From an uncultured Bacilli bacterium (GTDB lineage: Bacteria > Bacillota_I > Bacilli_A > RFN20 > CAG-826), in contig CALVUI010000002.1 of assembly GCA_944363565.1 (NCBI GenBank), forward strand, positions 206,408 to 270,407: a stretch of DNA of 64,000 bases. Reading direction: 5' to 3'. Shown here in pieces: positions 3,106-56,808 of the stretch. The notes beneath the pieces were generated by a model that was not told the origin of the DNA, did no database searches, and saw only the letters and a program-made list of their open reading frames with translations. Made by a program: the position numbers and the translations under genes. How positions within the stretch are numbered: position 1 is the first letter of the stretch; each line of letters opens with the position of its first letter.

Positions 3106-3566
3106 TACTTTTCCTCGGAGATATGGACGTTGACGATGCCGTCGACTTCGCCCTGGCTTCCCTTGTAGAGTTCGATCTTCAGACGGGTATAGCCAAGGGC
3201 GTTGGCCGGATACTTGTCGATGAACTTCCGCTTGTCGATCTTGATCCCCCATTGCTTGAGCATCTCTTCTTCGATCTGCTTGGGAGAGATGGAACCGAAC
3301 ATCCGCCCGTCGCTTCCGACCTTGGCCGTGAATTCGACGTTGATGGATTTGAGCCTCTCGGCCACTTCTTCGGCTTCCTTATAAAGGACCTTCTGCCGTT
3401 CTTCTTCGATGGCGTTGCTCCGGGCTAGTTCCTTTTGGCTTCCTTCGGTCGAACGGAGGGCGAGCTTCCGGGGAATGAGGTAGTTGGTCGCATAGCCATC
3501 GCTGACGGAAATGGTGTCGCCCTTCTTTCCGAGCTTCTTGACGTCTTCTAACAAAATGACCTTCAT
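3105..3566 (-). CDS. rplI: 50S ribosomal protein L9
   Basis: MKVILLEDVKKLGKKGDTISVSDGYATNYLIPRKLA is a canonical L9 N-terminus; 153 aa. Confidence 0.95.
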   Translation of the reverse strand: MKVILLEDVKKLGKKGDTISVSDGYATNYLIPRKLALRSTEGSQKELARSNAIEEERQKVLYKEAEEVAERLKSINVEFTAKVGSDGRMFGSISPKQIEEEMLKQWGIKIDKRKFIDKYPANALGYTRLKIELYKGSQGEVDGIVNVHISEEK

Positions 3567-5593
3567 TGTTTGTCTCCTTCCTTGGTAATGTCGATGCGGG
3601 CCGAATCGAGGTATTCCTCGAGGGTCTCGAGCAAGGTTTTCTCGGCCTGCTCGACGGTTTGGCCGTTGAACGAGGCGGCCGCCGAGGTGAAATGGCCCCC
3701 GCCGCCCATTTTCTCACAAAGCAGTTGGACGTTGACCGAGCCATCGCTCCGCGCCGATATTCTAACCATTTTTTCATCGGTCTTGCCGATGACGAAGCAG
3801 GCATTGATGCCCTTGAGTTGCATCAATTGGTTGGCAACCTTGGCCAGGGTCGAACGCTCAACCAAATACTTCCCATCGGTCTTGCAGTAGACGATCCCAT
3901 AGTAGGGGGTCGTCATGGTGGAAATGATCTTGGTGATGAGGGTATATTCCTCGAACTCGTCCTTCAGATAGTAATCGGCGACCGCGTTGTCGGCCCCGAA
4001 GGACTTGAGGATCTCCGCCGCTTCGAAGGAGCGGGAACCAGTCGACTGGTTCTTGAAGAAATTGGTATCGAGGAAGATGCCCGAGAGCATGATGGTGGCG
4101 TAGGCCGGCTTGATCTCGATGGCCGGGTTGGCGGTCGCGTAATGGATCATCTCGGCGATCATTTCCGAGGCTGAGGAAGCCGAGGGGTCGACGTAGTTCA
4201 AGACCGGCTTGCTGACATATTCCTCGCCCCGGCGGTGGTGGTCGATGATGACGACCTTGCCGGCTTTTTCCAGCAAAGCGGGACACATGGTGAGGGAGGG
4301 GCGGGAAACGTCCACCACGAAGACCAGGGTCGAATCCTTGATCGAAGACAAGGCTTCGGACGGAGAGATGACCAGGGAATCGTAGACATCCTTGGGGAAG
4401 GCTTCCTGGAAGGCAATCCGGGCCTTCTTTTCCGCCTGCTTGGGGGAATAGACGATCTTGCAGGCCTTGCTGCAGTATTCGCAGAGGGCCTTGATGCCGA
4501 GACAACTGCCGAGGGCATCCATGTCCATTTCGTCATGGCCCATGACCATGACCGAGGAAGCCGAACGGATGAGGGCTAAGGTCGAGTCGGCGACCGAGCG
4601 GACCTTGACCTTGTTGGTGGCCTCGAAGGCCGCCGTCTTGCCGCCGTAGAAGCGGAGGTCGGAGCCGTACTTGGATACGACGGCCTGGTCACCGCCGCGA
4701 CTGAGGGCGATGTCGATGGCGTTGGAAACCATTTCGTTGAGGCGGATGGCATCCGGGAAGTCATGGGCAAAGCCGATGGACAAAGTAAGGGGAGCGGAGG
4801 GCCCGCTTTGGCAGGAACGGACCTTCTCGAGGACGGCAAAGCCATCGAGCTGCATCTTCTCAAGAGAGGTCCAGTTGCAGACCGCGAAGTAGGTATCGGC
4901 GCTCACCCTTCTAAGCAAGGCGCCCTTCTCCCGGAAGTAATCGCCGATCTCGCTTCTGACCTTGGCCAAGGTATCGTTGGTGTCTTCTTCCTCACCGGCC
5001 CTTTCGGCGTAGTTGTCGATCATGACGACCCCAAGGGCCAAGGCCTGGCCCCGGGAATAGGAAAGGAGGTTTTCGTATTCGGTGACGTCATGGAAGATGA
5101 AGAGGTGCGACTCAGCCACGTACTTGACCGAATAGGTCCGGCCCTTGAGTCCTACTTCGATGGTCTTGCTGGCCGGCCCGTCCATCAATTTCAGCAAGGC
5201 CGGGTCGACTGAAGAAAGGGGCTGGTCAATAAAATCGATCTGCCGTTCCTTGAAGAGGGAGTTGGTCCACATGACCGATTTCTCGTCATCGATGACGATG
5301 AGGCCGATCTTGGCAAAGGAATAGGCTTCCTGGATGTCGCTTCCGACCAAGGTCGCGGTTTCCAAATCGGACTTGTTCCTGACCCGGCTCAAGGAGGCGA
5401 CCGAAAGCCAGTAGAGGAGGAAGTTAAGGAGCAAGAGGACAAGGGCCATCACCACGACGTAGGAAACGGGGATGACCTCGGAAATGGAGGCGAAGTCAAA
5501 ATAGTAGGCCACCAGGGTCAAGGCCAGCAAAATGAATTCGATTCCCGCGATCAGCGTCGCGTAGATCCGGATGCGGCGGATGGCTTTCCTCAT
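3563..5593 (-). CDS. gdpP: c-di-AMP phosphodiesterase GdpP (2 TM helices, degenerate GGDEF, DHH and DHHA1 domains)
   Basis: N-terminal TM pair; DHH motif IIDHHRRG; DHHA1 GGGGH motif; conserved yybT-rplI-dnaC gene order. Confidence 0.85.
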   Translation of the reverse strand: MRKAIRRIRIYATLIAGIEFILLALTLVAYYFDFASISEVIPVSYVVVMALVLLLLNFLLYWLSVASLSRVRNKSDLETATLVGSDIQEAYSFAKIGLIVIDDEKSVMWTNSLFKERQIDFIDQPLSSVDPALLKLMDGPASKTIEVGLKGRTYSVKYVAESHLFIFHDVTEYENLLSYSRGQALALGVVMIDNYAERAGEEEDTNDTLAKVRSEIGDYFREKGALLRRVSADTYFAVCNWTSLEKMQLDGFAVLEKVRSCQSGPSAPLTLSIGFAHDFPDAIRLNEMVSNAIDIALSRGGDQAVVSKYGSDLRFYGGKTAAFEATNKVKVRSVADSTLALIRSASSVMVMGHDEMDMDALGSCLGIKALCEYCSKACKIVYSPKQAEKKARIAFQEAFPKDVYDSLVISPSEALSSIKDSTLVFVVDVSRPSLTMCPALLEKAGKVVIIDHHRRGEEYVSKPVLNYVDPSASSASEMIAEMIHYATANPAIEIKPAYATIMLSGIFLDTNFFKNQSTGSRSFEAAEILKSFGADNAVADYYLKDEFEEYTLITKIISTMTTPYYGIVYCKTDGKYLVERSTLAKVANQLMQLKGINACFVIGKTDEKMVRISARSDGSVNVQLLCEKMGGGGHFTSAAASFNGQTVEQAEKTLLETLEEYLDSARIDITKEGDKQ

Positions 5594-5629
5594 AGGTGCC
5601 TATTATAAACCCTAATCCCAAGGGATTAG
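5594..5629 (-). promoter_or_regulatory. putative gdpP promoter: TATAAT 8 nt before the ATG (possibly leaderless) next to a perfect 8-2-8 palindrome CTAATCCCAAGGGATTAG (5612-5629)
   Basis: Minus-strand reading ...CTAATCCCTTGGGATTAGGGTT TATAAT aggcacct ATG; no Shine-Dalgarno between the -10 and the ATG. Confidence 0.4.
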
Positions 5630-5839
5630 ATAGGGCTTGCACCCAAAAGGAATTCCTAGAAAGGCCGGTATCCAATCAAACCGAAAACCGATATATCGAA
5701 AACCCCGCAAAAGTGAATCATTTGGAATGTTATCCCCATTTTAGGACTCCTTGGGTTATAAAAAGGACAAATAAGGTTTTCATGGGTCTTAATGATGCCA
5801 TTACCCCCGAAATCAGAGCCTTTTCCACCCTTTAAGCAA

Positions 5840-5869
5840 CAAAAAAAGACCTGCCTTAACGGACGGGTC
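5840..5869 (-). terminator. rho-independent terminator downstream of the vat remnant
   Basis: Minus-strand imperfect GC hairpin GACCCGTCCGTTAAGGCAGGTC followed by TTTTTTT. Confidence 0.5.
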
Positions 5870-5885
5870 CTTCGACTCGTTTTTG

Positions 5886-6003
5886 CCTAATGTCGCCATA
5901 CGACACCATCCGTCTCCGAAACTACGATCTTCTCCCTTCTGGTGCGATCATGCCGCGTTTCCCTCCTTCCGCGAACGACTTTTTCAAAATATCCCTTGCC
6001 CAT
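5886..6003. repeat. composite island repeat, copy A (unit 2 only), fused to the vat remnant
   Basis: About 85-90% identity to 8609-8740 and 10783-10920 (TAATGTCGCC..CCATCCGTC.CCGAAACTACGATCTTCTCCCTTCTGGTGCGATCATGCCGCGTTTCC...). Confidence 0.85.
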
Positions 6004-6291
6004 TATGTTGAATGGGTAGGTAGAGATTCCGTTAAAGCGGTGATTGGCGCCGTTCATGATGAACCTAACGCCCTTGGCGATTGCGCAGAACTTCCCGATG
6101 ATCAGTTTGTCCCCGATGAATGGGTAATGGTGGCTTACGTGGCTTTCGAAATCCACACCGCCGGTTTCGCTATCGTCATAATAGGTGTAGTCGCCAATGA
6201 CGATATTGGGGTTTTTGACGACGTTTTTTATAAAGCAGACGCTTGGGACCTTTGGATTGGGATGGATGTCGTTCTTATTGGGGCCTTCCAT
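5887..6291 (-). pseudogene. vat: truncated streptogramin A / xenobiotic acetyltransferase (Vat family, hexapeptide-repeat) remnant: about 110 N-terminal codons, then repeat-derived sequence and a stop
   Basis: MEGPNKNDIHPNPKVPSVCFIKNVVKNPNIVIGDYTYYDD...HYPFIGDKLIIGKFCAIAKGVRFIMNGANHRFNGISTYPFN matches the Vat(D)/SatA N-terminal half; the C-terminal ~100 aa of LbH repeats are missing and the ORF ends inside repeat copy A. Confidence 0.7.
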
Positions 6292-6470
6292 AACGTGCCT
6301 CCTTTTTTAGCGACATTAAAGGCATGCCCTAAGGGATTTGGCAATAGAGGGATTATGGGCAATTCGCCCAAAAGGCGAGCGGATTAAACCAATAGGCGTT
6401 AAACTTGCCTTATGCGTCATTGTCCATAGGCGGCCATCACCACACAATGTAGCCACGAAAGGACATGTAT

Positions 6471-6706
6471 ATGACAAACATCCAACAAAGACTCCTCGAC
6501 CTAAGCTAAGGAAGGAAAAGGGGCTGACCCAGGAGGAGGTGGGCGCCAAGCTCGGCGTCTCCCCCAAAGCGTCTCAAAATGGGAAAACGGCCTCACCTAC
6601 CCCGACATCGACCTCCTCCCGGAGATCGGGGACTCTATCGAGGTAAGCTATTATGACGGCCTTCTTGGCGAGCCATATTACATATACGCAGGCTACGTCT
6701 TTTGAA
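6471..6706 (+). pseudogene. XRE-family (Cro/CI-type HTH) transcriptional regulator disrupted by two frameshifts
   Basis: Three frames together spell MTNIQQRLLDL / RKEKGLTQEEVGAKLGVSPKA / VSKWENGLTYPDIDLLPEIGDSIEVSYYDGLLGEPYY. Shifts lie at a CTAAG direct duplication (~6505) and near a C5 run (~6570). AAAGGA RBS 7 nt before the ATG at 6471. Confidence 0.55.
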
Positions 6707-7095
6707 TAGGATCCCACGGCCTTCTCGCAAAACGCCGTCAGGAGGCTCCTCCAGTAGCATCCGTTCCTAGGCGAGGCGCGCCCGTCTTCGCATTCCCCTG
6801 TGGAATCCAGGAGGACGCCCTCCACAGCCTCGCTGAAATCCTTCTCCATCCCGCATCTTAGCATCTCGCCAGCGGGAATGGGGCTTCCTCAAGGGAGCCC
6901 TTCGCGTCGTCTTTTGCCATGCGGCTTTCTCTTTCCTAGGCAAATGCAAGGATAGAAGTCTACTTCTTGGGAATCTAGCCCTTCCGCGGTAGCCCAGTGG
7001 ACGTTCGCGGACGGGTTTTTAGCTTACACAACATTTATCCGCGGTCCCGAAGATTAGGCCAACGCTTCCCCCGCGTGTGAATCCCTCTCCCAATG

Positions 7096-8340
7096 TCAAA
7101 TGGCTTCCTTCCCAAGGAATAAATCGATTGCATTTATGTGGCGAACCCCTTCTTGCTGATCTCTAAGCAGATCAAGGGAAATGATATATCGGGGATAGCC
7201 ATCTCTTATTTCCCTAAATGGCCTATATTCCCTTTCCTTGGTTTCCTCGTTTCCCGTCATCGTATATGCGACTTGGATATAGGCATAATCGCCATTTTGC
7301 TTTCTTACGATAAAATCGCATTCGAAATTGCCGATTTTCCCCACGCTTACTTGGTATCCGTTGCTAACCAAATAAAGATAAACAATGTTTTCCAATGAGT
7401 GGCCATAGTTCAATTTGTTATTGACGTTAGTTGAAAAATACAACGCCAAATCTGCTAGGTAATACTTTTGTTCTCTCAACAAGGACCTTTTGGATTTCAA
7501 ATCGAATCTATCGCATTCATATATGATTTTGGCTTTCTTTAAAACCTCAATGTAGTTCTTAATCGTTGCGATCTTTGCTTTAATGCCGGCTTTAGTTAAC
7601 GAATAGTGAAAGCTTTTTAGGGAAAAGGGCGAAGCGTAATTGTTGATGATGTATGACTGAACCCTCTCAAAAAGGGCTAGATTGGAAATCCTGTTTCTGG
7701 TTTTGACGTCTTTATTGAATATTTCGGCGATTATCTGGCTTGTATATAGTTGTTTGGCGCTAAAATCGTCAAACTCCAAAGCCTTTGGAAAACCGCCTTC
7801 CATGATATAGGAGTTAAATTCTTCGTAAACATTATTCTTGATTGTCTTGCTGAAGAATTTTTTCATTTCAAGATATTCGCGAAAATCCAATGGATATGTT
7901 TCGAAAGCAACATATCTTCCGGTCAATTTAGTCGAAATTTCATCGCTTAAAAGATATGAATTTGAACCGGTTAAAAAAACCGAGTAGCCTTCTTCTTCGT
8001 ATTGAAGCACCACTTTTTCAAAACCTCTGACATTTTGGACCTCATCGATAAATAGATAATATCTGCCTGAGTCATGAATCCGTTCTTCTATTTTGCTTTC
8101 CAGTTGCTTTGGGGTGACGATATTCTTGTATCCCCTTTTATCCAAGGGCAAATAAATGATTCTGTCAGACAGGTTCCTTGACTCCAATTCGCTGATAATG
8201 GATTTCAAAATCGATGTTTTGCCAGACCTTCTAATGCCCGTAATAACCTTTACGACATCGCTATCGTAAAATGGCCTGATTTTCGACAAGTACTTTTCCC
8301 TTGGATAAATCATATTCTCCATAAGTTTGTTTCCGTCCAA
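7096..8340 (-). CDS. AAA+ superfamily ATPase (AAA_14 + DUF4143, COG1373-type)
   Basis: GIRRSGKTSIL P-loop, LFIDEVQ Walker B; 414 aa; gene is markedly AT-rich relative to its flanks. Confidence 0.75.
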   Translation of the reverse strand: MDGNKLMENMIYPREKYLSKIRPFYDSDVVKVITGIRRSGKTSILKSIISELESRNLSDRIIYLPLDKRGYKNIVTPKQLESKIEERIHDSGRYYLFIDEVQNVRGFEKVVLQYEEEGYSVFLTGSNSYLLSDEISTKLTGRYVAFETYPLDFREYLEMKKFFSKTIKNNVYEEFNSYIMEGGFPKALEFDDFSAKQLYTSQIIAEIFNKDVKTRNRISNLALFERVQSYIINNYASPFSLKSFHYSLTKAGIKAKIATIKNYIEVLKKAKIIYECDRFDLKSKRSLLREQKYYLADLALYFSTNVNNKLNYGHSLENIVYLYLVSNGYQVSVGKIGNFECDFIVRKQNGDYAYIQVAYTMTGNEETKEREYRPFREIRDGYPRYIISLDLLRDQQEGVRHINAIDLFLGKEAI

Positions 8341-8530
8341 TGGTTTATATCATTAAATCGGGTTTAAGGGTAGTGTTTTTGAGAAAAGTTAAAAAAACAG
8401 TCCCCTTAAACGGCCATTTACTTGCAAAACGGAAGTCCTTGGCTTATTGGCTTTTTAGTGGAAATAAAATCTAACCCCCTATGGTTTGACGGAAATGGCC
8501 ATCAGGGTAATGCCCTGATCAAATAGTAGA

Positions 8531-8930
8531 AAAGGGCCTCGCCGAGGAGGCCCTTGGAGAACGGTTCTTGTTGTGATTTCCGGGGCAATCGAGCCCGGGA
8601 AACTACAATTAATGTCGCCGCACGGGCCCATCCGTCCCCGAAACTACGATCTTCTCCCTTCTGGTGCGATCATGCCGCGTTTCCCTCCTTCCGCGAACGG
8701 CTTTTCCAAAGGATCCCTTGCCCACGCCCAGGCAGCCTCGCATAAGGACAATGCAGGCGCCGTCTTGATTATCCGGCCTTGCCACGAAGCGATCCGGGCT
8801 TGCCTGGAAAGCGTTTCTGGCAGTCTAAGGAATTCGCCAAGGCATAAGTAAAAGGCCGCGCCGAGCAGGCCCATGGAGAACGGTTGCCGCATCTGGCCTA
8901 TCCGGGCTGCCACAGAGAAAACTAGACTGT
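8531..8930. repeat. composite island repeat, copy B (unit1-unit2-unit3-partial unit1/3)
   Basis: Unit 1 (8531-8606) ~90% identical to 10696-10790 and 11028-11100; unit 2 (8609-8740) to 5886-6003 and 10783-10920; unit 3 (8745-8855) to 10920-10990 and partly 10640-10700. Confidence 0.85.
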
Positions 8931-9079
8931 TTTAAAAGCGTAGCTGGCTAGCTAGATGCTTTACCTAAACGCAAGAAAAGTCCTCTTGGAGAGAGCCCTT
9001 TAAAAACGGTTTTTCTGTCGCTTCGGGCGGATCGAACTGCCTGACCGTATAGCCCGCCGGCTTTAAAAAGAGCGAATGG

Positions 9080-10408
9080 TCAGAGTATTTCCCAATACCC
9101 GCTTTTACGTGACCCGATGCGTTTCAGAATTTTGCCATCGCGTAGGGACTTAAGATGACGGTAAACGGTTATTTCGGCTTTGCCAGTTGCCTTGGCCAAA
9201 TCATCAATCCGGCTAAATTTGTTCTTGCGCAAGGCATCAAGTATCGCCTCGTCGACGTCGTCTTTCGCATTATCGATTCCATCATTCAAGAATCGCTTGT
9301 TCCTTATGAAGAGAAAAGTGAAGCCGAACTCATCGTTTCGGTACTCGTAGCCAATGCTATTGCGGTCGCAAAGAGTAAATGTTCTCTCGAAGCCGGTTCC
9401 GAAAGCATCGATATACCCGCATTTGTAAAGCACAGACGCAATGAGCACGTTCCGTATTTTGCTGCCTACCTCCGCGGTGGCGAATTTCATTGGGTCGATG
9501 TTTTTGTAAATCGATCCCGGGTTATAAATCCGTATCGATGACTTGAATATCGTTATTTGGTTGAAATCCCCTTTGACCCCGTACTTGCTATGCACAAAGC
9601 TGTTCACCACGATTTCGCGAATGGCTTCAATCGGTATTTCGGGCGTTTCGACCCTTTGAATTCCTTGAATTTCCGATTTGTAGCTTATGTGGTTCTGAAT
9701 ATAGGAAACCGCTTCGCGGATGCACTCAAAGATGTTTCCCTTGAACTGTTTGATTTCGCCGAATTCGGTGCGGCTGTCGGTTGGATACGAGGCTTCTTTG
9801 ACCATTACCGGCTTCCCTTTACCGAAAAGATAGTATCCAGCGGTTTTTATCCTCCCGTCCTTATCTACAAGGTCTAATTTTGTCATCGCTTCCTTGAGAC
9901 CTTTGTATACGTAATTGAGGCGTCCTTTTTCATTTGCCGTCCTTATGACGTCCAGAACGAGGTCCTCGTCGATATCCTCATAACCGCAATCGGCCGGCTT
10001 TTCCTCCCACCCCGAATACGTATCGTCCTTGGCTTCGAAGTATTTCTGAAGCTGATTATTCGTCATCGGGATGTCACCGTCGTCGAGCCGACAGAAATAG
10101 CGGCCATAAGCGGAATAGGGAGTGTCTTCTCCTTCCGCATAAACGCGGATTACTTTGCTTCCGTCAACTTCGACCACATTGATATCGAGCGTAGTTGGCA
10201 TCGGCTTCAGGCTTGTCCGTATTTCGTTCGAAAGATCAGGTAGCGTCTTAGGGCCAATGGTGAGCGGATGGGGCTTTTTGTCGGGACCAATGCCGAAAAA
10301 GACTTCTCCGCGATGGCTTTTGTTCAGCATAGCGCTTAGCGAAATGACACCTTCCCTTTCTTGGCTGAGAGACTTTTTATATTCAGTGACGACATCCTCG
10401 TTTTTCAT
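9080..10408 (-). CDS. Schlafen/AlbA_2-domain + HATPase_c_4 + C-terminal wHTH protein (COG2865-type putative DNA-binding regulator)
   Basis: 442 aa; N-terminal divergent AAA/AlbA_2 region, central ATPase-like region, C-terminal winged-helix (ITVYRHLKSLRDGKILKRIG); lower GC than flanks. Confidence 0.65.
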   Translation of the reverse strand: MKNEDVVTEYKKSLSQEREGVISLSAMLNKSHRGEVFFGIGPDKKPHPLTIGPKTLPDLSNEIRTSLKPMPTTLDINVVEVDGSKVIRVYAEGEDTPYSAYGRYFCRLDDGDIPMTNNQLQKYFEAKDDTYSGWEEKPADCGYEDIDEDLVLDVIRTANEKGRLNYVYKGLKEAMTKLDLVDKDGRIKTAGYYLFGKGKPVMVKEASYPTDSRTEFGEIKQFKGNIFECIREAVSYIQNHISYKSEIQGIQRVETPEIPIEAIREIVVNSFVHSKYGVKGDFNQITIFKSSIRIYNPGSIYKNIDPMKFATAEVGSKIRNVLIASVLYKCGYIDAFGTGFERTFTLCDRNSIGYEYRNDEFGFTFLFIRNKRFLNDGIDNAKDDVDEAILDALRKNKFSRIDDLAKATGKAEITVYRHLKSLRDGKILKRIGSRKSGYWEIL

Positions 10409-10635
10409 GTCTTTCGCTCCTTTGAACTAACTGCTGCTTTATCTTATCATTTATCTTATCATTGATGAAATAAAATGATGATATAAAAACCGGGCAGCAG
10501 TCTGCTTATCTTGGCGATTGGTAAACAATCACGGGCTTTGTTATTCGTCTTGATCATAAAACCCATCTACTTATCGACCCCGTAGGCAACCGGTCGAGGG
10601 GAACACTCAGGTCAAACTAATCTATTCTAGGCTCG

Positions 10636-11103
10636 CCATGAAGCCGTGCGGGCCCGTCTGGGAAGCGTTTCTGGCAGGCCAAGCAATTCGCCAAGGCATA
10701 AGAAAAAGGCCTCACCGAGGAGGCCCGTGGAGAACGGTTCTTGTTGTGATTTCCGGGGCAATCGAGCCCGGGAAACTACATTAACTGTCGCCATACGACG
10801 CCATCCGTCCCCGAAACTACGATCTTCTCCCTTCTGGTGCGATCATGCCGCGTTTCCATAAATCCGCGAACGGCTTTTCCAAAGGATCCCTTGCCCATGC
10901 CCAGGCAACCGGGCGACGGGAAAACGCAGGCGCCGTCTGGCTTATCCGGGCTAGCCACGAAGCGATCCGGGCTTGCCTGGGAAGCTTTGTCGGTTGATTA
11001 GTCTATTTATCTATAGGCATAGAAAAAGACCTCCCGGAGGAGGCCCTTGGAGAACGGTTCTTGTTGTGATTTCCGGGAAAATCGAGCCCGGGAAACTACA
11101 TTT
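10636..11103. repeat. composite island repeat, copy C (partial unit3-unit1-unit2-unit3-spacer-unit1), abutting the rpsR stop
   Basis: See copy B; the last unit 1 (11028-11100) is the native rpsR terminator region. Confidence 0.85.
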
Positions 11104-11110
11104 ACGCCGC

Positions 11111-11335
11111 TTATTGTCCGGCGTAGGGAAGAAGGCCCATGAAGCGGGCATTCTTGATGGCCCGGGCCAATTGGCGCTGATACTTGGCGCAAGTACCGGT
11201 CGCGCTCCTCGGGGCGATCTTGCCTTCCGGGGTGATGAAGCGCTGAAGCAACTCGACATCCTTGTAGTCGATGTGCTTGATGTGGTTCTTGGTAAAGTAG
11301 CAGACCTTCTTCCGGGGTCTCATTTTCTTGTACAT
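11111..11335 (-). CDS. rpsR: 30S ribosomal protein S18
   Basis: 74 aa, [17 protein letters not shown]...[27 protein letters not shown]. Confidence 0.95.
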
Positions 11336-11354
11336 TTCTGTCTCTCCTTACTGG

Positions 11355-11810
11355 TCAATCAAAAGGGAATGGGATGTCGTCCTCGAGGACGTCGAAGTCG
11401 TCGCTTTGGGCCGCGTTGTTATTGTTGGAAGCGGGGGCCACGTCGGGGGTAAAGCCGACGTTGGTCGCTCCGGCGGAAGCCGAGGCGTTCTTCGGGTCGA
11501 GGAATTCGACACTGTTGGCAACGATTTCGGTCGAAGTGACTTCGACGTTGTCTTTGTTGCGGACGTATTTGCGCTGGACCAGACGTCCATCGACGGCCAC
11601 CAAGGAGCCCTTGTGGGTGAACTTGGCGACGGTATCGGCCCGATTGCCGAAGACGGTAACCGGCATGAAGATGGTTGATTTCTCCCCGTTGGCGTTCTTG
11701 TAGCTATCGTCAACGGCCACCGTGAAGGAAACGATGGAGGTTCCGCTGGCCGAACGGGCCAACCGGGGATCGCGGGTGAGTCTACCGATCAGGACGACGT
11801 GGTTAAGCAT
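11355..11810 (-). CDS. ssb: single-stranded DNA-binding protein
   Basis: OB-fold N-terminus MLNHVVLIGRLTRDP, Gly/Asn-rich linker, acidic DDIPF C-terminal tip. Confidence 0.9.
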   Translation of the reverse strand: MLNHVVLIGRLTRDPRLARSASGTSIVSFTVAVDDSYKNANGEKSTIFMPVTVFGNRADTVAKFTHKGSLVAVDGRLVQRKYVRNKDNVEVTSTEIVANSVEFLDPKNASASAGATNVGFTPDVAPASNNNNAAQSDDFDVLEDDIPFPFD

Positions 11811-27700: not shown

Positions 27701-29608
27701 CTAGGCAATCTTGAATCCGGTGTAGGTAGTCGGTTCCCCTTGGCAATAAAGGCCTAGATGGGTCGGGGCAGTGCTGATACCGCTCACGGTCCTCGAGCCG
27801 ATCTTGCTGTAGGCTCCCGCCCTCAAGGTAGCCTCGAATGTGGCCGAATCTCCGGCCATCGTGACCTTCACTTCGAGATCGAAGCCATCGGCCGGATGGA
27901 CGGCGCTTCCGTCGGCCCAGATATCGTGCCAGCCGAGGTCGGCGCCGCCGATGGTCCCGGTGATTTGGATGCAACGGATCTCGTGGGGCCGATCGGAGTC
28001 CGCGTATTGGGCGTAGACGATGACGAAGTCATTGGGTCCGGCGTAATAGGCGAGGTAGCCGAACATCAATTCCTTGGTGGCGTTCCCGGTCGTGGTCCCT
28101 TTGATGTGGCCACTTAGGGTATAGGAATTACCGACTTCCACGGGCTTACCGACGAAACCGGCCTTCCAGTTGGAGTTCTCGACGACAATGGAATCCCCGC
28201 TTTCCTCGAAGGTCGTGGGATTTCCGCCCGGGGCCAGAACCTGCCAGTCGGTCTTGATTTCTTCCTTTTCGAAGACGATGTTGCTGAAGGTCGCAACATC
28301 GCCGTTGCTATAGACGCCGGCATAGGCCGAGGGGCCGAAGCTACCGGTCATCGAGGTCGAACCGACCTTGACGGTCGACCCGGCAGTGACGTTGGCGGTC
28401 GCGGTGACACCGCTATTGGTGATTTGGACGCTGACGGAGAGACTGAGGCCATCGGCCGGGGCGACATGACAGCCATCCATCCAGATGGGACTGGGATAAG
28501 TGACCGCTCCGTTGACGGAGACGGCCGGTTGGATGGAGGTCAGGTCGCTAGGACGACCGGCACCGTTGGCCTTCCATTCGGCATAGTAGGCGATCCAGTT
28601 CTCGGCATCCTGGTAATAGGCGACGATCCCCACGGCGACGTCGTGGTCGATCGGGAGGGCGTCAATCGTCCCCTTGATGTCGGCCTTGACGGTATAGGCG
28701 TTGCCTAGCTCATTCGCGGGCTTGACCACGAAGTTCTTGAGGTGGTCGTTGTTGCTGATCTTGACGGAGTCACTAGAGGGTTGCCCATAGGCAAACTCGG
28801 CCCCGGCATTGACGACCTCGAAGCCCTTTTCGAAACCATCATAGGCGATTTCATCCCCTAGGGTCTTGGTAGCCTTGCTGCCGCTAAGGTAATCCATGTG
28901 GAAGGGGGTGCTTTCCACGTCCTTGATCGAGAGGACGAAGGCCCCATAGGGATCGACCTTGGTCATCTTCCCTTCATAGGTGAGGATGTCGTCGGCGTTG
29001 GCCTTAAGGACGACCGAAGAATCGCCTTGGGTCAGGCGGACTTCTTCGTCGGCCTTCAGATAACCCGGCAGCTTGATCGAGACATCGAGGTCAACATAGA
29101 CCGGATTGGGGTCGCAGCTATAGGTGATGACCAAACTACTGATCGTCGTCTCCTCGAAGGCCTCCAAGTTGAAGTAACTCGGGGAGCCGATGACCTCGGT
29201 CGGGACTTCGTTGACCGGAAGCTTGACGGGGACAAGGGCCCCGGCCTCACTCCCGAAGGAGAGGGCCAAACTTCCCTCATAGGAAATGGTGATCCCCTTG
29301 ATCCCGGTGATGGGATCGCTGTTGGAAAGGCTCCCGCCCCGATTGAGGAGGGCGTGTCCGGCCTCCGGCTTTTCCCCGAGGCCTTCATAGACGAACTTGA
29401 CCTTCCCTTGCTTGGTGTTGCTGAGCAAGACCTGTTCCTTGGTCCCGGCTTCCGGGGCGTTGTCGGCACTGAGGGTGAAGGTATAGCCCTCGTCGGCTCC
29501 CGCCACGACGGGGTCATTCCCATAGGCCGAAGCGCAGGCGATCGCGGCCACCATCCCGGTCGCTAGTAAGCCCACGCCCATGATTTTGGCAAAACTACTC
29601 TTTTTCAT
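27701..29608 (-). CDS. secreted lipoprotein with repeated beta-sandwich-like (carbohydrate-binding?) domains
   Basis: Start at MKKSSFAKIMGVGLLATGMVAAIACASAYG (lipobox AIAC), AAAGGAGA RBS; shares W/YY-x-D-x-N-[YWF] repeat-domain signatures with the 954-aa neighbour. Confidence 0.7.
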   Translation of the reverse strand: MKKSSFAKIMGVGLLATGMVAAIACASAYGNDPVVAGADEGYTFTLSADNAPEAGTKEQVLLSNTKQGKVKFVYEGLGEKPEAGHALLNRGGSLSNSDPITGIKGITISYEGSLALSFGSEAGALVPVKLPVNEVPTEVIGSPSYFNLEAFEETTISSLVITYSCDPNPVYVDLDVSIKLPGYLKADEEVRLTQGDSSVVLKANADDILTYEGKMTKVDPYGAFVLSIKDVESTPFHMDYLSGSKATKTLGDEIAYDGFEKGFEVVNAGAEFAYGQPSSDSVKISNNDHLKNFVVKPANELGNAYTVKADIKGTIDALPIDHDVAVGIVAYYQDAENWIAYYAEWKANGAGRPSDLTSIQPAVSVNGAVTYPSPIWMDGCHVAPADGLSLSVSVQITNSGVTATANVTAGSTVKVGSTSMTGSFGPSAYAGVYSNGDVATFSNIVFEKEEIKTDWQVLAPGGNPTTFEESGDSIVVENSNWKAGFVGKPVEVGNSYTLSGHIKGTTTGNATKELMFGYLAYYAGPNDFVIVYAQYADSDRPHEIRCIQITGTIGGADLGWHDIWADGSAVHPADGFDLEVKVTMAGDSATFEATLRAGAYSKIGSRTVSGISTAPTHLGLYCQGEPTTYTGFKIA

Positions 29609-29756
29609 GGTTCTCCTTTTTGTAAGCGCTTCCAACGCCTTCCGCCCCAAAGACTGACGACGGGGGAACGTTTTCTGACGCAAGTCCATTCTAAGGGGGC
29701 CATATAAGGGCCTTAATGCCACAAGCCTAGGCTCTTATACAATTTGGCACCATGAA

Positions 29757-29797
29757 TGAAAAACGCCGCCCGGCTTGGCCGGGTCGGCGCTTTTTGG
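29757..29797. terminator. strong GC hairpin / terminator between the two large surface-protein genes
   Basis: AAAAAC-GCCGCCCGGC-TTGG-CCGGGTCGGCGC-TTTTT. Confidence 0.75.
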
Positions 29798-29812
29798 TGT
29801 TTAGGCTATTAG

Positions 29813-32677
29813 TTACTTGGCCTTTTTGTTGCGTTGACGCATATAGAGGTAGACGCCAAGACCAACGAGGAGAAGGACGCCGATCCCCCCGAAGACGAGG
29901 CCGAGGATGAGGCCGAGGTTTTCGTTTTCGGGTTCGGTCGGAGTGACGTCGGTACCGCCAGTCGAGGTGCTGCTTTCGCCCTCTCCGGTCGCCGGCTTTT
30001 CGGCAACCGTGATGTCGTATTCGATCGGGTCGGCTTCGTTGCCCCAGTCATCGATGCAGGTAACGCTGACATGGTAGGCCCCGAGCTTTTCGGCCGTGAA
30101 GGCATTGGAGACCAGGGTCACGGGATTATCAGTCGGATCGGTGACGTTGACGATGGCGTTCAAAGGATCGTAGTTGCTATTGGAGGCGGTGTAGATCGGA
30201 AGACGGACACTATCCCCTAAGTAGGCCTCGGTGACCCGGGTCCCGACTTCGGCGATGACCGGCTTTTCGTTATAGGAGTAGACCCGTTCGTCGACCCCGA
30301 GGGCGAAGTCCTTGAAGGTCGCGGAGACGTTGGAGATGTTGAAGCCGCTCTTGGCTCCGCTTAGCCGTCTAGCCGATAGACCCGGGTATTCGCCCTGGTA
30401 GACCGGGGCGAAGGTCCCGCCGACATAGACGGAGATGGTATCGCCTTCGATATGGGCTTCGAGCTTGTTGTCGGCCCCTTCGAACTGGATCCCGACTTCC
30501 CTCTCGCCCCATTCGGGCGGGATGATCTGGCCATTGATGCGGACCGTGGTGTTGACGTTGGTGGTCGAACCGGCCCAACGGCTGAACCAGACGAAGACGT
30601 AGTTGTTGCTGTCGACGTAGTAGGGGACAAGACCGACCTTGTGCTCGCTGGCGGTCACTTCGGAAACATTGACCGTGGCCCCGCACCAGAAGTCGGTCTT
30701 TTCGTTGCTGATGAGGGCATTGGTCTGCTGCCAGACGGTCCCGCCATCGAGCTTCCCGGTGACGGTCCCGTTTTCCTCATCGATGGTCCAGGTATCGGGA
30801 CGGGGGCCGTTCAGGCTCCAATCCCCTTCCTGGACGGTGCTGTTGGGAAGGAAGCCGGTATAGGTAAGGCTATTGAGGCTCCCGCCCTGGCCTTCAAAGA
30901 AGAAGCCGGTGGCTAGAGCTTCGGAGAAGTCGAAGTCGTTGAGGACGAAGCCTTCGACGACAGAGGTTCCGTCAAGGCTGACATTGAGGACGCCCCTCTT
31001 CAGTTCGGTGGAAAGTTCATGGGGAGCCAAGGCATCGAACCCTTCGGGGAGGGCATTGGTGGTCGGGGTTTCCACTCCGTTCACGCAGACATAGACGGTG
31101 ATGGCGGACTTGCCCAAAGCGACCCTGACGTAATTGTCGACATCTACCAAGAAGGCATAGAGACCGTATTCCTGGCCATCCTGCAGAGCCGCGAAGGTGG
31201 CGCTGACCGAGATATTGCCGACATAGCGAGTAGAGAAATAAAGTCCGGCCACTCCTTCCTGGTCGCCGCTTTTGACGGCCAGATCATCGACGGTGTAGGT
31301 CCCGCCTTCATAGGAGAAGACGCTATCGTCGTCGGTGGCCGACTTGACATTGACAAGCTGGCCACCGACCGAGGCCACCCGCCAGTCGAAGGCCTGGTAT
31401 TGGATGGAGGCGGTTTCGTAGGTGAAGGTGACGTTCATGCCGCTGACGGCCGTCCCGATCATGTTAGAAGAGGCAAAGGTGGCATTGGAAGCAGTCAAGA
31501 CCGTGGCCCGGTCGTTTTCGAGATAGACCGAGATGGTGTTGCCCTTCTTTTGGGCAATGATGGTGATATTGCCATCTTGGTCGGCTTTTTGCGCCGATTC
31601 ACCAAGTTCCAGGGATTCATAGATCGGGGTTTGGTTCATGGTGCCCCCGGCCCCGTAGACGGTGACGAGGCCTTCGATGTAGAGGGTCCTCTTACCGCCC
31701 AGATCAAGGATATAGGCGACTGCGTAGTTGGTTTCGTCGTTGTACCAGGCGACCAGGCCGATCGCCGACTTGTCGACCAAGGCGGTTTCCGGGAAGGTGG
31801 CCTTCAGCTCATAGTTCCCCTCATAGGGGTTCTTGCCAAGGGCCATGGTCGAGGCCACGCCACTCGCGGTGGTTTCGTCAATCGCGTAGGTCTTGTCGTT
31901 GATGGTCCAATTCCCGGAAGCGGATTTGGCGACGATCCCCGGAGTGACTTCGTGGTAGAGGTCGGTCCTCGCATTTTCGGCCACTTCAAAGGAAGTGATC
32001 TCGAGGTTCTCGTTGTAGGTATAGATCCCGACCTTCGAGGGTTTGGTCGAATACTTGGGAAGATCGCGGAAGCCATAGAAACCGACCTTGTTGCCGTTGA
32101 TGTAGGCGCTGAATTCGTCGGTATCCCCGGCCGCGCTCCTTTCCTTCTTGACCTCGAAGGTCCAGGAGGAGTCGGGGGAGACGGCAAAGCCCTCGTTGGC
32201 CCCGTCCATCCAGGCGTCGTTCCACTCGGCTTCGACGAAGCCCCCGTCCTTGTAGACGACCGGGGCCTTGCCGTCGATCCGGCCGGTGAACTCGACGACC
32301 CGCATCCCGCTCGGCCTTTCGGTCGGGCTCCATTCCATGTAGACCACCAGGTAGTTGTTGGCGTCCAAATACCAAGGGACAAGGCCGATCTGGATGTTCT
32401 TGGTCACGGGCCAGGCCGTTTCGCCCTTGCCCTCGATCTTGACGCTGTAGTCGCCTAAATAACTATCGGCTTCATAAAGGAGGAAGTTGTCGCGCATCCC
32501 GGTTTGGGAAGCGGAGGCAAGGATCGAATCCTCGCTTATCGTGTAATAACTCGAGACGTCTCCGCCGGTAGAAAGCGACCAGTCGGCGGCCTTGAAGGCC
32601 GCTCTCGGGGCGGCATTAGCCCCCGAGACGCCGGTCAAGGAAGCGAGGGCCAAGACGGGGATCAACAATCCGTTCAT
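29813..32677 (-). CDS. large cell-surface protein: signal peptide, 4 or more copies of a ~110-aa repeat domain, C-terminal TM anchor with basic tail
   Basis: MNGLLIPVLALASLTGVSGANA signal; repeats containing GLVPWYLDANNYLVVY / GLVAWYNDETNYAVAY / GLYAFLVDVDNYVRVA / GLVPYYVDSNNYVFVW; C-terminal hydrophobic segment LGLILGLVFGGIGVLLLVGLGVYLYM then RQRNKKAK. Confidence 0.75.
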   Translation of the reverse strand: MNGLLIPVLALASLTGVSGANAAPRAAFKAADWSLSTGGDVSSYYTISEDSILASASQTGMRDNFLLYEADSYLGDYSVKIEGKGETAWPVTKNIQIGLVPWYLDANNYLVVYMEWSPTERPSGMRVVEFTGRIDGKAPVVYKDGGFVEAEWNDAWMDGANEGFAVSPDSSWTFEVKKERSAAGDTDEFSAYINGNKVGFYGFRDLPKYSTKPSKVGIYTYNENLEITSFEVAENARTDLYHEVTPGIVAKSASGNWTINDKTYAIDETTASGVASTMALGKNPYEGNYELKATFPETALVDKSAIGLVAWYNDETNYAVAYILDLGGKRTLYIEGLVTVYGAGGTMNQTPIYESLELGESAQKADQDGNITIIAQKKGNTISVYLENDRATVLTASNATFASSNMIGTAVSGMNVTFTYETASIQYQAFDWRVASVGGQLVNVKSATDDDSVFSYEGGTYTVDDLAVKSGDQEGVAGLYFSTRYVGNISVSATFAALQDGQEYGLYAFLVDVDNYVRVALGKSAITVYVCVNGVETPTTNALPEGFDALAPHELSTELKRGVLNVSLDGTSVVEGFVLNDFDFSEALATGFFFEGQGGSLNSLTYTGFLPNSTVQEGDWSLNGPRPDTWTIDEENGTVTGKLDGGTVWQQTNALISNEKTDFWCGATVNVSEVTASEHKVGLVPYYVDSNNYVFVWFSRWAGSTTNVNTTVRINGQIIPPEWGEREVGIQFEGADNKLEAHIEGDTISVYVGGTFAPVYQGEYPGLSARRLSGAKSGFNISNVSATFKDFALGVDERVYSYNEKPVIAEVGTRVTEAYLGDSVRLPIYTASNSNYDPLNAIVNVTDPTDNPVTLVSNAFTAEKLGAYHVSVTCIDDWGNEADPIEYDITVAEKPATGEGESSTSTGGTDVTPTEPENENLGLILGLVFGGIGVLLLVGLGVYLYMRQRNKKAK

Positions 32678-32695
32678 AGATATCTCCTTTCCGAA

Positions 32696-35062
32696 TCAGA
32701 TGTTGGAAATGGTTTTCCCGCCGAGGCCATAAGCCTCGAGGGCGTTGATCTGTTCTTCCTCACTCATGGTGAGGCTTTCGATGGAGTAGGTCCCGAAGCA
32801 GGACTTGAACTGGATGATGGGTTCGATGTTGGCGATGCCGCTCCAGGGGAGCCAGGTGCCGACCGAACTGAAGTTGAAGTCGGCCACGGTCGTGGCCTCG
32901 GGTCCGAGGGCCCGGTACTTGAAGCCCATGCGGCCGTCGTAGTCGTTGCTGAGTTTGGTGGCGTTTTCGATGAGGAGGGCGGCCGAGCGGTAGAAGTCAT
33001 CCCCGGTCTCGAGATACATCCGATAGAGGGCGAAGAAGATGTAGGCCGCGTAGTTGTCGGCGCTGCTATGGCCGGTGGCGATGAAGGAGAAGCCGATGAC
33101 CCCACCGTCTTCGAAGGTGTTGATCTCGCGATTGGAGATTTGGCTCGGGACCGCGAAGTCGTAGACATAGACCCAGCTCATGGCCGAGACCGAGGCGTGC
33201 TCGGCGGCCTCCAAATACTTCTCGTCCCCGCTTAATTCATAGGCGGCTTGGAAGCAATACATGGCGTAAACCGCGGCTTCCTTGTCGACGGTGTTGGGGT
33301 TGTCCGGAGTCCCGCCGACGTACTTGCCTTTGTTTGAATAGAGTTCCTGGTAGCTATATTCGGCGGCCTCCAAGGCCGAGGTTTTGTATTTCTCGTCGCC
33401 GGTGAGTTCGTACGTCTTCCCGAGGAAGCGGACGGCGACCGGGGTATTGAGCTCGCTCTTGCCTTGGTAGGCGACATTGGAGGTATCGGTGCAGACGGTC
33501 CCGTTGAGGTTGTAGGCCCGGTTAAAGGAACCGTTCTCGTTTTGGACGGCGGTCAGGTTGTCGGCGATCTTGGTGATGGCGTCCAGCCACTGGGGATGTT
33601 CGATCCCAAGGCCCTTCTCCATCAGATAGCCATCGAGGATCCCCTCGGCCGCGTCGACCATGCATCTCAGGAAGGTCGGATAATCGCGCCTGGTCCCGCC
33701 GGCGATCCCATTTCCCGGATCCCACCAGATGATGGGGAAGTAGTTCCCCATGATGGTGCGACTCGTCCAAAAGTCGAGGGACCTGAGGCCCTTGTTGATG
33801 AAGTCGCTATCGCCGTGGCTACGGCCATAACGGAGCATCTGGTAGGCGGCGGCCGCCTGCTGTCCGACGAAGCCGGACTGGGAGGCATAGCCTTGGTCGA
33901 CCGAGCCATCGGGCAGGGTCAGGGACCAGGGAAGGCCCCCATAGACGTCATTGGTCCCGAAGGTCCGGTATTCCTGGCCAAATAGATATAGGTTGTCCTC
34001 GTAGATCTGCTCCATGTCGACTTGGGGGTAGGCGATTTCCTGGGATCTAAAGGCTTCCTTGTAGGTCGCGACCATCGCGTCGTTGTAGGAGGCTTCGTTC
34101 CGGAGGATGATCCCGGCCTTGTAGGTATGGGCAAAGCCCTTTTCGAGGGGGTGGTAACGCTTGGCCCAGCCTTGGCCCGAGTCGTAGGTGTTGGGGCCTT
34201 CGCTGCTGGGGTAGCAGAAGTCGACCCCGACATAGGGGGTAATCTGGAAACCGACCGAGCCGTATTCGAACTTCTCGGAGATCTCCCCGTTGGCCCCGCC
34301 TCCGATGTCGCCGTTGACGGAAATCTCGGGTTCGAAGTGATATAAGCCGATCGAGTAGCCGCTATTTTGGCGGATGAAGGAAAGGGGCATCCCGGTCCTC
34401 GTTTCCTTGACCATGACCTTGCCGGTCAGATTGAGGTTGCTGGCAATGGAGCCACTCCGCATTTCCGAGGTATCTTTGTAGATGATGGCGGGAATGAAAT
34501 AGGTAAAATCCTCGTAATTCGAGGAGCCTTCTGCGTTGATAATGAGCATTTCGCTTTGGAAACCGGCGTCTTCGCCGCCCTTTTCCAAAACCTCAACCGT
34601 CCTTTCAAAAGCAAAGGAATTGCTGCCTTCGGGGACGAAGTAGGCGTCGGTGACGGCGAGGCGGCTCCCTTCCTCGGTGCTGACATCGGCCCGGCCGATA
34701 TAACCAAAAGAGGTTTGCTCGATATTGGAGTAGGTCCGGGTGTAGGTATCCTCGTCGTAGGTGGCAAGGATGCCCGAGGAATCACTACGGACGTTGATGG
34801 TGACCGGGCTCTCGGCCTTGTAGGCCGTCACCCCTTCGTAGACGTATTCGACAGAGTAGCCGCCTTCGGCCTTCTCGACGAAGCGGAGGGCGGTCTTGCC
34901 CAAGGTGATGGCGTTGTCGCCAAGGCTTCCGTTAGGGGCATCGGGCAGGTCATAAGAGATGGAAGAAGAGGACGAGGACGACTCGCTCGAGATGGCGGGA
35001 GTCGTCGGTCCGCAGGCCACTAAGAGGAAGGCGAGAGGGATAACTAAACTGCTTCTTTTCAT
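32696..35062 (-). CDS. lipoprotein, putative (alpha/alpha)6-barrel glycoside hydrolase / polysaccharide-degrading enzyme
   Basis: Lipobox LLVACG; N-terminal beta-rich region then a Trp/Tyr-rich helical C-terminal half resembling unsaturated-glycosyl hydrolase / heparinase-type barrels; family not assignable by eye. Confidence 0.5.
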   Translation of the reverse strand: MKRSSLVIPLAFLLVACGPTTPAISSESSSSSSSISYDLPDAPNGSLGDNAITLGKTALRFVEKAEGGYSVEYVYEGVTAYKAESPVTINVRSDSSGILATYDEDTYTRTYSNIEQTSFGYIGRADVSTEEGSRLAVTDAYFVPEGSNSFAFERTVEVLEKGGEDAGFQSEMLIINAEGSSNYEDFTYFIPAIIYKDTSEMRSGSIASNLNLTGKVMVKETRTGMPLSFIRQNSGYSIGLYHFEPEISVNGDIGGGANGEISEKFEYGSVGFQITPYVGVDFCYPSSEGPNTYDSGQGWAKRYHPLEKGFAHTYKAGIILRNEASYNDAMVATYKEAFRSQEIAYPQVDMEQIYEDNLYLFGQEYRTFGTNDVYGGLPWSLTLPDGSVDQGYASQSGFVGQQAAAAYQMLRYGRSHGDSDFINKGLRSLDFWTSRTIMGNYFPIIWWDPGNGIAGGTRRDYPTFLRCMVDAAEGILDGYLMEKGLGIEHPQWLDAITKIADNLTAVQNENGSFNRAYNLNGTVCTDTSNVAYQGKSELNTPVAVRFLGKTYELTGDEKYKTSALEAAEYSYQELYSNKGKYVGGTPDNPNTVDKEAAVYAMYCFQAAYELSGDEKYLEAAEHASVSAMSWVYVYDFAVPSQISNREINTFEDGGVIGFSFIATGHSSADNYAAYIFFALYRMYLETGDDFYRSAALLIENATKLSNDYDGRMGFKYRALGPEATTVADFNFSSVGTWLPWSGIANIEPIIQFKSCFGTYSIESLTMSEEEQINALEAYGLGGKTISNI

Positions 35063-56232: not shown

Positions 56233-56560
56233 TTCTCTTAGCTCCGATGGCTTCAAGATCCGCGGCCAGTTCCCCTTCGATCGCGGCCCCGGCTTGCGTT
56301 TGGTATTCATAGCGGGCGGTCACGATGAGGTCGATGGGGGTGCCTGGTTCGAGATGGCGGTCGATGGCGGCGCGGATTTGCCTTTTGATGAGGTTGCGGG
56401 TAACGGCGTTCCCGTTTTTCTTCGAGACGCCGACGCCGACCCTGGCCTTCGAGTCGTTGCTCCGGTAATGCAGAAGGAGGTTGGGGCTTTTGAACCTCTT
56501 GCCTTCCTTTCTGATTTCCGCGAACTCCTCGTGGTCGAGAATGCGGTCGGCCTTTTTCAT
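56225..56560 (-). CDS. rnpA: ribonuclease P protein component
   Basis: 111 aa basic protein between rpmH and yidC. Confidence 0.85.
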   Translation of the reverse strand: MKKADRILDHEEFAEIRKEGKRFKSPNLLLHYRSNDSKARVGVGVSKKNGNAVTRNLIKRQIRAAIDRHLEPGTPIDLIVTARYEYQTQAGAAIEGELAADLEAIGAKRID

Positions 56561-56562
56561 CC

Positions 56563-56700
56563 TTAGGCGCTGATGACGGCGCGGCCCTTGGCCCGACGGC
56601 GGGCCAAAACCTTGCGGCCGTTGTGGGTGGCCATCCGGGCGCGGAAGCCGTTGACGTTCTGGTGCTTGAGTTTGGAAGGTTGATACGTTTTCTTGGACAT
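56563..56700 (-). CDS. rpmH: 50S ribosomal protein L34
   Basis: [45 protein letters not shown]; the 96-aa table ORF carries a spurious N-extension. Confidence 0.95.
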
Positions 56701-56808
56701 GGTTGATACTCCTGGGTTTAACGTGCGTGCGGGTAGATTATAGGGATTAGAGGCCCCGCCCTCAATAACTTTCGCGCGTATATGCGTGAGAGGGCCCCTG
56801 CCAATGAG

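Follow-up and report, generated by a model that had tools for sequence, protein, structure and literature searches.

The DNA between rpsR and gdpP in an uncultured Bacilli bacterium contains an island of accessory genes interspersed with copies of one non-coding repeat. What is this repeat, and how did it come to lie beside these genes? The question was studied in a window of 64 kb, the whole stretch of DNA that was analysed. All genes of this region are on the minus strand: rpsF-ssb-rpsR (12130-11111), the island and gdpP-rplI-dnaB. The original prediction described a composite repeat present in three copies, with the modules in the order unit3-unit2-unit1 on the minus strand, and likened it to a cassette array built by repeated site-specific insertion with duplication of an attachment region.

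The three-copy repeat is real, lies where it was predicted, and has its modules in the predicted order, as shown by direct-repeat alignments and a shuffle test. A repeat search of the window gave 89% identity over 288 nt (8528-8815 against 10701-10988), three copies of a 115-nt segment at 90-91% identity (5888-6002, 8610-8724 and 10783-10897) and three copies of an 85-nt module at 92-93% (8527-8611, 10700-10784 and 11020-11104). Two invariant cores, 28 and 46 nt long, are each present three times in the window and absent from all of 100 shuffles. Unrelated copies had been named as the finding that would speak against the prediction; upon alignment the copies are related, with identities of 89-93%. 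All of them are situated between rpsR and gdpP, and no further copies were found elsewhere in the 64 kb. The arrangement is not an assembly artifact, because it is supported by two overlapping scaffolds from independent metagenome assemblies, one running from rpsR to the AAA_14 gene and the other from the AAA_14 gene to gdpP.

Read on the minus (gene) strand, the repeat unit, here called E, is a non-coding element of about 314 bp, 5'-TGTAGTTTCCCGGG...GTGCGGCGACA-3'. A profile of 313 nt was built on 21 distinct full-length copies, and positions were mapped onto it by nhmmer. The modules are arranged as T (positions 1-85), a variable spacer, X (116-200) and Y (201-313). Module T comprises a hairpin, the palindrome AGAACCGTTCT and a rho-independent terminator. 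The best conserved modules, 1-85 and 201-313, are also the parts kept in units that carry cargo, which retain at least positions 1-85 on the left and 202-313 on the right, i.e. at least 85 and 112 nt. When placed on this profile, copy C of the original prediction consists of a complete unit (11100-10787) and a left part (positions 1-198, 10780-10583), copy B of a right part (42-313, 8885-8614) and a left part (1-85, 8607-8523), and copy A of a right part only (202-313, 6003-5892). E was considered as a protein-coding repeat and rejected, since 1-nt indels interrupt the apparent 38-codon open reading frame of module Y, the copies have no open frame in common, and the variation lacks a 3-nt periodicity.

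The window can thus be segmented into rpsR, a first element without cargo (E1), a second unit in which AlbA_2 is enclosed by a left and a right end of E, a third unit in which AAA_14, two ORFs and a vat remnant (vat') are enclosed in the same manner, a terminator, and gdpP. All the features that follow are on the minus strand. The rpsR gene, encoding ribosomal protein S18 (11111-11335; Pfam Ribosomal_S18, E-value 6e-27), has the conserved C-terminal codons ..ARFMGLL. The first element is 28 nt downstream of these codons, which are presumed to be the target-recognition determinant. The rpsR flank is joined to E1 by the pentamer GTAAA (11101-11105), which is TTAAT in sister strains. E1 is complete (10786-11100; profile positions 1-313 and a terminal A; nhmmer E-value 7.5e-104), reads 5'-TGTAG...GGCGACA-3' and is connected by the pentamer GTTAA (10781-10785) to the left end of the second unit (10583-10780; positions 1-198, diverged past about position 150; nhmmer E-value 1.3e-48). 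The cargo gene of this unit (9080-10408) encodes a protein of 442 aa with AlbA_2/Schlafen, HATPase_c_4 and winged-helix domains according to Pfam. The same left-end piece precedes AlbA_2 in genome L015, where the counterpart of window positions 9035-10887 is 95% identical. Directly after the AlbA_2 gene there is a weak chimeric E-like fragment (8887-9035; positions 16-169; nhmmer E-value 1.2e-11), joined to position 42 of the right end that follows (8613-8885; positions 42-313 and a terminal A; nhmmer E-value 3e-85).

The pentamer TTAAT (8608-8612) leads into the left end of the third unit (8523-8607; positions 1-85; nhmmer E-value 6.9e-26). In strain L010 this left-end junction directly follows its E1. 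The third unit contains a gene for an AAA_14 + DUF4143 ATPase (7096-8340; Pfam), two small ORFs of 96 and 83 aa for which family searches gave no match (6316-6864), and a truncated remnant resembling the streptogramin A acetyltransferase gene vat (6004-6291; VatA/VatD match, E-value 1e-25). Residues 3-104 of the remnant match only the N-terminal half of the VatA/VatD structures. The annotated vat' reading frame (5887-6291) is an in-frame fusion that runs into the right end of E, with the break at E position 202. Thus vat' is a pseudogene, a resistance-type gene that travelled as cargo and was truncated later. The right end of the third unit (5891-6003; positions 202-313 and a terminal A; nhmmer E-value 3.6e-31) is followed by the pentamer TTAGG (5886-5890), which is similar, not identical, to the other junction pentamers. 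Next comes a hairpin with a T-run (5841-5885), presumed by comparison with the empty sites L041 and L046 described below to be the original terminator of rpsR, displaced 5.2 kb from its gene. The first core gene past the array is gdpP (3563-5593; Pfam). An apparent -10 box (TATAAT) lies only 8 nt before its ATG (window 5594-5640, minus strand), and likewise just upstream of gdpP in L021 (about 3508-3560, minus strand), which suggests that the gdpP mRNA is leaderless.

Several other features of the window deserve description. The region of the replication origin, oriC, lies at 56500-59800, with rpmH-rnpA-yidC-jag-trmE on the minus strand and with dnaA (57039-58466) and dnaN (58618-59739) on the plus strand; recF and gyrB come next. 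About 46-51 kb separate the island from dnaA, and its genes point in the direction of replication. The rlmH gene (SPOUT methyltransferase, orfX homologue) is found at 390-869 on the minus strand, with a gene of the metallo-beta-lactamase fold before it; in staphylococci the 3' end of rlmH/orfX is the attachment site of SCC. Beside a sugar ABC transporter, positions 27701-35062 (minus strand) encode three large adjoining proteins (673, 954 and 788 aa) with no or marginal Pfam matches.

The origin of the array becomes apparent when alleles with and without E are superimposed. At the empty sites L041 and L046 the native terminator comes straight after the stop codon of rpsR. The empty L041 site, which belongs to RpsR variant P0011, reads TAA-TTCG-TG-AATTTGATT and continues into the native terminator. 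The P0011 sites L039, L040 and L042 are filled with a block of 1,904 bp consisting of E 1-255, a 163-aa ORF and an acyltransferase gene, and E 61-313; the junctions of this block are ..TTCGCAAT/TGTAG and GGCGACA/CGCAAATTTG. The flanks of empty L041 and filled L039 are 98.0% and 96.0% identical on the two sides of the 1,904-bp insert, and in L039 the E-bounded block is flanked by a duplication of CGCAA. Of the ten contig contexts listed for the species with RpsR variant P0050, seven are empty (..GATAAAAACAAACGGCC..). In strains L050 and L048 the site is occupied by E-bounded blocks of 1,894 and 5,882 bp with ACAAA on both sides, and the flanks are 98-99% identical to those of the empty site L046. 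The duplications around other arrays are CTAAG (L027; L016 with L024) and CCTTA (L018 with L019). The duplicated 5-mer derives from the sequence at the target, varies among species, and is present once in the empty site where that site is known. The window itself has no intact outer duplication, its pentamers GTAAA, GTTAA, TTAAT and TTAGG being merely similar, and none was seen at several single-copy loci (L021, L023, L017). The empty and filled alleles together with the 5-bp duplications therefore show that E is, or rides on, a mobile element that duplicates 5 bp of whatever target it enters. The prediction of a duplicated attachment region has to be abandoned: the empty alleles are wholly without the repeat, the target duplication is only 5 bp, and the repeat represents the element's own left and right ends. 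The repeated site-specific insertion that was also predicted agrees with the data, insertion beside rpsR being specific as to both site and orientation.

The ends of E have the characteristics of transposon termini. All 21 full copies begin with 5'-TGT and end with ACA-3' (21/21). The terminal inverted repeat is imperfect and weak, with 59% identity over 37 bp. In register, the first 37 nt and the reverse complement of the final 37 nt agree at 22 positions, a number reached by none of 20,000 shuffles. There is a single subterminal motif, GTCCCSGAAA, at positions 21-37 from each end. The other internal repeats are in direct orientation, and multiple transposase-binding repeats are not recognizable in the E ends. 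In at least nine species E starts 28-31 nt past the ..ARFMGLL codons with its orientation constant. The rpsR stop codon is situated 0 to 14 nt before E; the distance of E to the ..ARFMGLL codons is nonetheless constant.

Tn7 behaves in a comparable way. Its TnsD protein binds the conserved end of glmS, and insertion takes place about 25 bp beyond, where there is no sequence requirement, in one orientation and with a 5-bp duplication (PMC2918618). The ends of Tn7 are TGT/ACA, and 144 bp from one end plus 70 bp from the other are all that mini-Tn7 requires (PMC11014353). Like Tn7, E lies behind a conserved essential gene, in one orientation and at a fixed distance from the coding end, and has no sequence requirement at its insertion point. 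As in mini-Tn7, short ends suffice. The 5-bp target duplication and the TGT...ACA termini are shared with elements of the Tn7/Tn5053 type in general. However, the target gene of E is rpsR, and no paper in the library searched mentions Tn7-like elements and rpsR together. Each end of E has one recognizable subterminal repeat, its units of 0.3-6 kb are wholly non-autonomous, and its copies are commonly in tandem, which is not expected under target immunity of the Tn7 type (PMC11014353). E loci also differ from Tn7 and Tn5053-type elements in being without tnsA/B/C/D or tniQ genes. E is similar to MITEs in that it is small and non-coding, has terminal inverted repeats, produces a target duplication and would depend on a transposase supplied in trans. 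Unlike MITEs, which are dispersed, E occurs at just one chromosomal site in each genome, carries cargo and stacks in tandem.

The genes that would encode such an enzyme were looked for in the window and beyond it. No integrase had been visible to the original prediction, in agreement with the present search of the 64-kb window, which found neither an integrase nor a transposase of the TnsB/TniA or any other kind, nor a gene for a TnsC/TniB-like ATPase, TniQ/TnsD or a tyrosine recombinase. Integrase, transposase, TnsC/TniB-like ATPase and TniQ/TnsD are likewise absent beside about 80 related loci. No recombinase was found in the cargo between E pieces of the related loci, and NCBIfam gave no transposase-like matches for the unannotated cargo proteins. 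A search around four other RpsR variants found no cognate transposase; empty sites, more arrays and a sister family of E were found instead. An IS1634-like DDE gene in the sister-lineage array L068 was considered as the enzyme of E and rejected, because it belongs to an independent IS whose ends, CACACC...GGCTGTG, are unrelated to E. E works like a non-autonomous Tn7-type element. Since the proteins that define the Tn7 family are missing, E cannot be counted as an established member and is at best a non-autonomous relative. We infer that the enzyme would be a DDE transposase supplied in trans, together with a target selector of the Tn7/Tn5053 kind.

The array also has the outward appearance of an integron cassette array or CALIN: co-oriented, promoter-bearing accessory cassettes, a recurring non-coding element, variability between strains and no recombinase nearby. 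A tyrosine or serine recombinase encoded elsewhere could then be acting at the site formed by the end of one E, the 5-nt spacer and the start of the next. This junction, ..GGCGACA-N5-TGTAG.., is an imperfect palindrome around the spacer, and some cargo has the junction pentamer on either side. Moreover, the 3' end of rpsR in staphylococci is an attachment hub for integrase-bearing islands, those of the SaPI4 family (bioRxiv 10.1101/2020.09.30.320143). The E array uses the rpsR end as a safe landing site in the same manner; however, SaPI4 islands have a gene for a tyrosine integrase and give rise to a second copy of a 15-bp core in the 3' end of rpsR, and the E array does neither. The window contains the rpsR 3'-end sequence a single time, without a direct repeat, and a recombinase gene is present in no locus. 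The duplicated 5-mer is species-specific and derived from the target, which a core-dependent recombinase would not produce; it fits staggered-cut transposition rather than a recombinase core or an integron attC site. The attC core sites R'' (RYYYAAC) and R' (GTTRRRY) are absent from both strands of E. The attC sites are imperfect palindromes of about 57-141 bp, whereas E has 314 bp and junctions with target-derived 5-bp duplications. Complete integrons were not found in Firmicutes genomes (PMC4889954), and the host clade of E is Firmicutes-like. A single recombinase crossover core, as a separate candidate, was rejected because the break points of partial copies are scattered over positions 42 to 255. 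The integron analogy of the original prediction therefore fails on the 5-mer and the attC motifs, and an array driven by an integrase is quite improbable.

In a scan of one genome per species the Y core was found at 16 loci in about ten uncultured Bacilli/Firmicutes MAGs, among them Candidatus Alloenteromonas and a chromosome of 1.06 Mb. All of these loci are in arrays that begin right behind rpsR, and the scan found no dispersed copies. No matches to E were found on plasmids, phages or viral contigs, and the JGI metagenome contigs gave a single match. Contigs with an identical RpsR protein have one or two copies of E, followed by differing DNA. All 7 of 7 contig contexts with identical RpsR end 0.4-4.4 kb past rpsR; contigs of these gut Bacilli break behind rpsR because E arrays lie there.

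The cargo between E pieces at related loci includes DUF2961, GmrSD, DUF4420 (PD-(D/E)XK), SPFH with a zinc ribbon, an AAA ATPase, DUF5655, Acyl_transf_3, ABC/CmpB and DUF234. The cargo of Tn7-like elements is rich in defence genes. A comparison of the window with related genomes gave identities of 65-80% for core genes, 80-92% for E and 95-98% for cargo. Window positions 6621-8456, with the AAA_14 cargo, are 98.4% identical to L015, and positions 6621-7282 are 97.4% identical to L019, from a species whose rpsR locus is only 70-76% identical. The acyltransferase unit of 1.9 kb is 93-95% identical between two species, the core genes of which are 64-74% identical. The cassette idea of the original prediction is supported to this extent: the repeat units delimit gene cassettes that are exchanged horizontally.

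The copies of E do not cluster by genome. Pairs within a genome are 81-89% identical, compared with a mean of 84% between genomes, and the copies are mosaics of shared polymorphisms. Overlapping pieces of E flank many cargo blocks (1-198/42-313, 1-255/61-313, 1-245/148-313 and 1-313/169-313), and partial copies break off at various places from position 42 to position 255. Strain L010 corresponds to the window minus the AlbA_2 unit and has a hybrid E. All these properties would be expected if E were a native conserved intergenic module behind rpsR and the array grew mainly by homologous recombination, E serving as portable homology; overlapping pieces around cargo are the signature of single-crossover integration. 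The route would be Campbell-type insertion-duplication, or homology-facilitated illegitimate recombination after DNA uptake. The duplication of the rpsR 3' end around cargo in sister lineages (L065; L068 and L067) points in the same direction. However, a native module would not be wholly missing from the empty sites, the filled sites are bounded by a 5-bp duplication and have no flanking homology, and E has defined termini with an inverted repeat. The acyltransferase unit is found in species with flanks of 64-74% identity, which are too diverged for homologous entry. As the main process homologous recombination is rather improbable. It probably does occur, in a secondary role, by rearranging copies that are already in place.

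The sister family, found in another lineage (L066-L075, RpsR variant P0075), is built like E and has the sequence 5'-TGTGTCAGGACGAG...GTCGTCATGGGACA-3'. It is likewise stacked behind rpsR and has diverged from E, with which it shares the AAGACCGTTCTCC core and the 3' end. Its terminal sequence is also given as TGTGTCAGGACGAG...CATGGGACA, and its junctions of 4-5 nt are identical to the rpsR flank. Among the genes that it carries are those for a Na/H exchanger, toxin-antitoxin systems and AAA_14. L068 and L067 additionally have a second copy, 83% identical, of the final ~70 nt or more of rpsR. These rpsR 3'-end duplications of the sister lineages are of the recombination type, showing that a second process is active at the locus.

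Insertions of other kinds also occur behind rpsR. In L065 (1032-2360), which has RpsR variant P0081 and no E, a gene for a 402-aa membrane protein lies behind rpsR, and the insertion duplicates the last ~110 nt of rpsR together with its terminator. It looks like a Campbell-type insertion-duplication, and its presence in an E-free species shows that the hotspot exists even without E. In the P0050 species, an unrelated element of 243 nt in L055 (10226-10480) occupies almost exactly the position behind rpsR that E uses. Its subterminal inverted repeats are long (..ATCCCGTTTGGGGCAAGGAATCG / CGAATCCTTGCCCCAAGCGGGAT..), and it has a duplication of 5 to 10 bp (AAACA, up to AGATAAAACA). Small elements of more than one kind are therefore drawn to this site.

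E might instead be a multi-copy structured RNA, a small RNA or a leader, that was duplicated passively. Module 1-85 ends in a terminator, and nearly every copy of E is followed by a terminator within 10-60 nt. The one-sided substitutions in three predicted pairs are mostly from G-C to G-U on the gene strand, and E is more conserved than the neighboring genes. However, Rfam 15 gave no match in the whole window at the gathering score, and over 5500-11400 there were only chance-level matches at E-values up to 10, so that the known multi-copy RNA which the original prediction had allowed for did not appear. RNAalifold of 33 copies gave a covariation term of -0.34 with one compensatory pair, and the folding z-scores of -1.07 and -0.35 are unremarkable. 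No conserved promoter was seen among the copies, and a consensus scan for promoters and terminators was uninformative. An RNA role leaves the empty sites and the target duplications unexplained. E was accordingly rejected as an RNA gene or riboswitch, and passive duplication of an RNA is very improbable.

A few other kinds of element were considered and rejected. A diversity-generating retroelement, with its template and variable repeats, does not fit because the differences between copies, as read from the alignment, are not adenine-specific. IS200/IS605-type and rolling-circle ends do not fit because the hairpins differ at the two ends and a target duplication is present, which those families do not make. 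Fragments of group I or group II introns would have matching end sequences, which are absent, and there was no Rfam match.

The most suitable explanation is that the copies of E and its separated ends represent a non-autonomous transposable element that inserts at one site behind rpsR, stacks there, and is later reshuffled by homologous recombination. We consider this reading reasonably likely. It proceeds from an insertion polymorphism, target duplications, termini with an inverted repeat, a constant position, transfer of cargo across species and mosaic copies, all of which are observed. A DDE transposase and a target selector, both supplied in trans, would insert units with E ends into the stretch that separates the stop codon of rpsR from its native terminator, in one orientation and with a 5-bp duplication. 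Some units would be empty, and others would hold cargo between a left and a right end. Repeated use of the regenerated site would stack the units in tandem. Such reuse explains why the junction pentamers within a genome (TTAAT, CTAA(A), CCAA and CTTA(T)) repeat the pentamer of the rpsR flank. Composite units might also move as one, as in L048, where the outer duplication is ACAAA and the inner junctions are CTTAT as in another species. Homologous recombination between copies of 80-92% identity would then delete or swap units, as for the AlbA_2 unit missing from L010, and deletions would truncate ends and cargo, as in the fusion of vat' to E position 202.

Two cargo blocks are bracketed by pentamers yet have no E ends: CTTAT..CTTAT in L048 (10530-14228), and GCTAAG..GCTAA around the DUF2961 cassette, present in L008, L011, L020 and L022. 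By eye, the start of the DUF2961 block resembles a 3' fragment of a histidine-kinase gene. The simple model leaves these blocks unexplained. They, the lack of enzyme genes, the weak inverted repeat, the tandem copies, the merely similar pentamers of the window and the single-copy loci with no duplication are evidence against a Tn7-type reading. Alternatively, E and its sister family could be an undescribed class of rpsR-targeting mobile elements whose mobilizing enzyme, perhaps host-encoded or unannotated, is not recognizably of the Tn7 type. They would form a recombinase-free, integron-like platform on which small-genome gut Bacilli, which are without integrons, store defence and accessory cassettes and exchange them across species. 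The blocks without E ends would then be moved by the same machinery, with the 3' end of E as a second attachment site. This version appears fairly unlikely.

The E family consists of small transposase-less mobile elements that move accessory and defence genes between species of uncultured gut Bacilli. With them rpsR joins the conserved gene ends that serve site-specific transposons as safe landing sites. They provide a route by which tiny units without a transposase ferry defence-type genes (Schlafen/AlbA_2, AAA_14-DUF4143, GmrSD and PD-(D/E)XK) and other accessory genes across ~30% core divergence, among genomes of roughly 1 Mb. If the cognate enzyme and selector are found, they would make up a small system for site-specific insertion, the ends of which measure about 100 nt.
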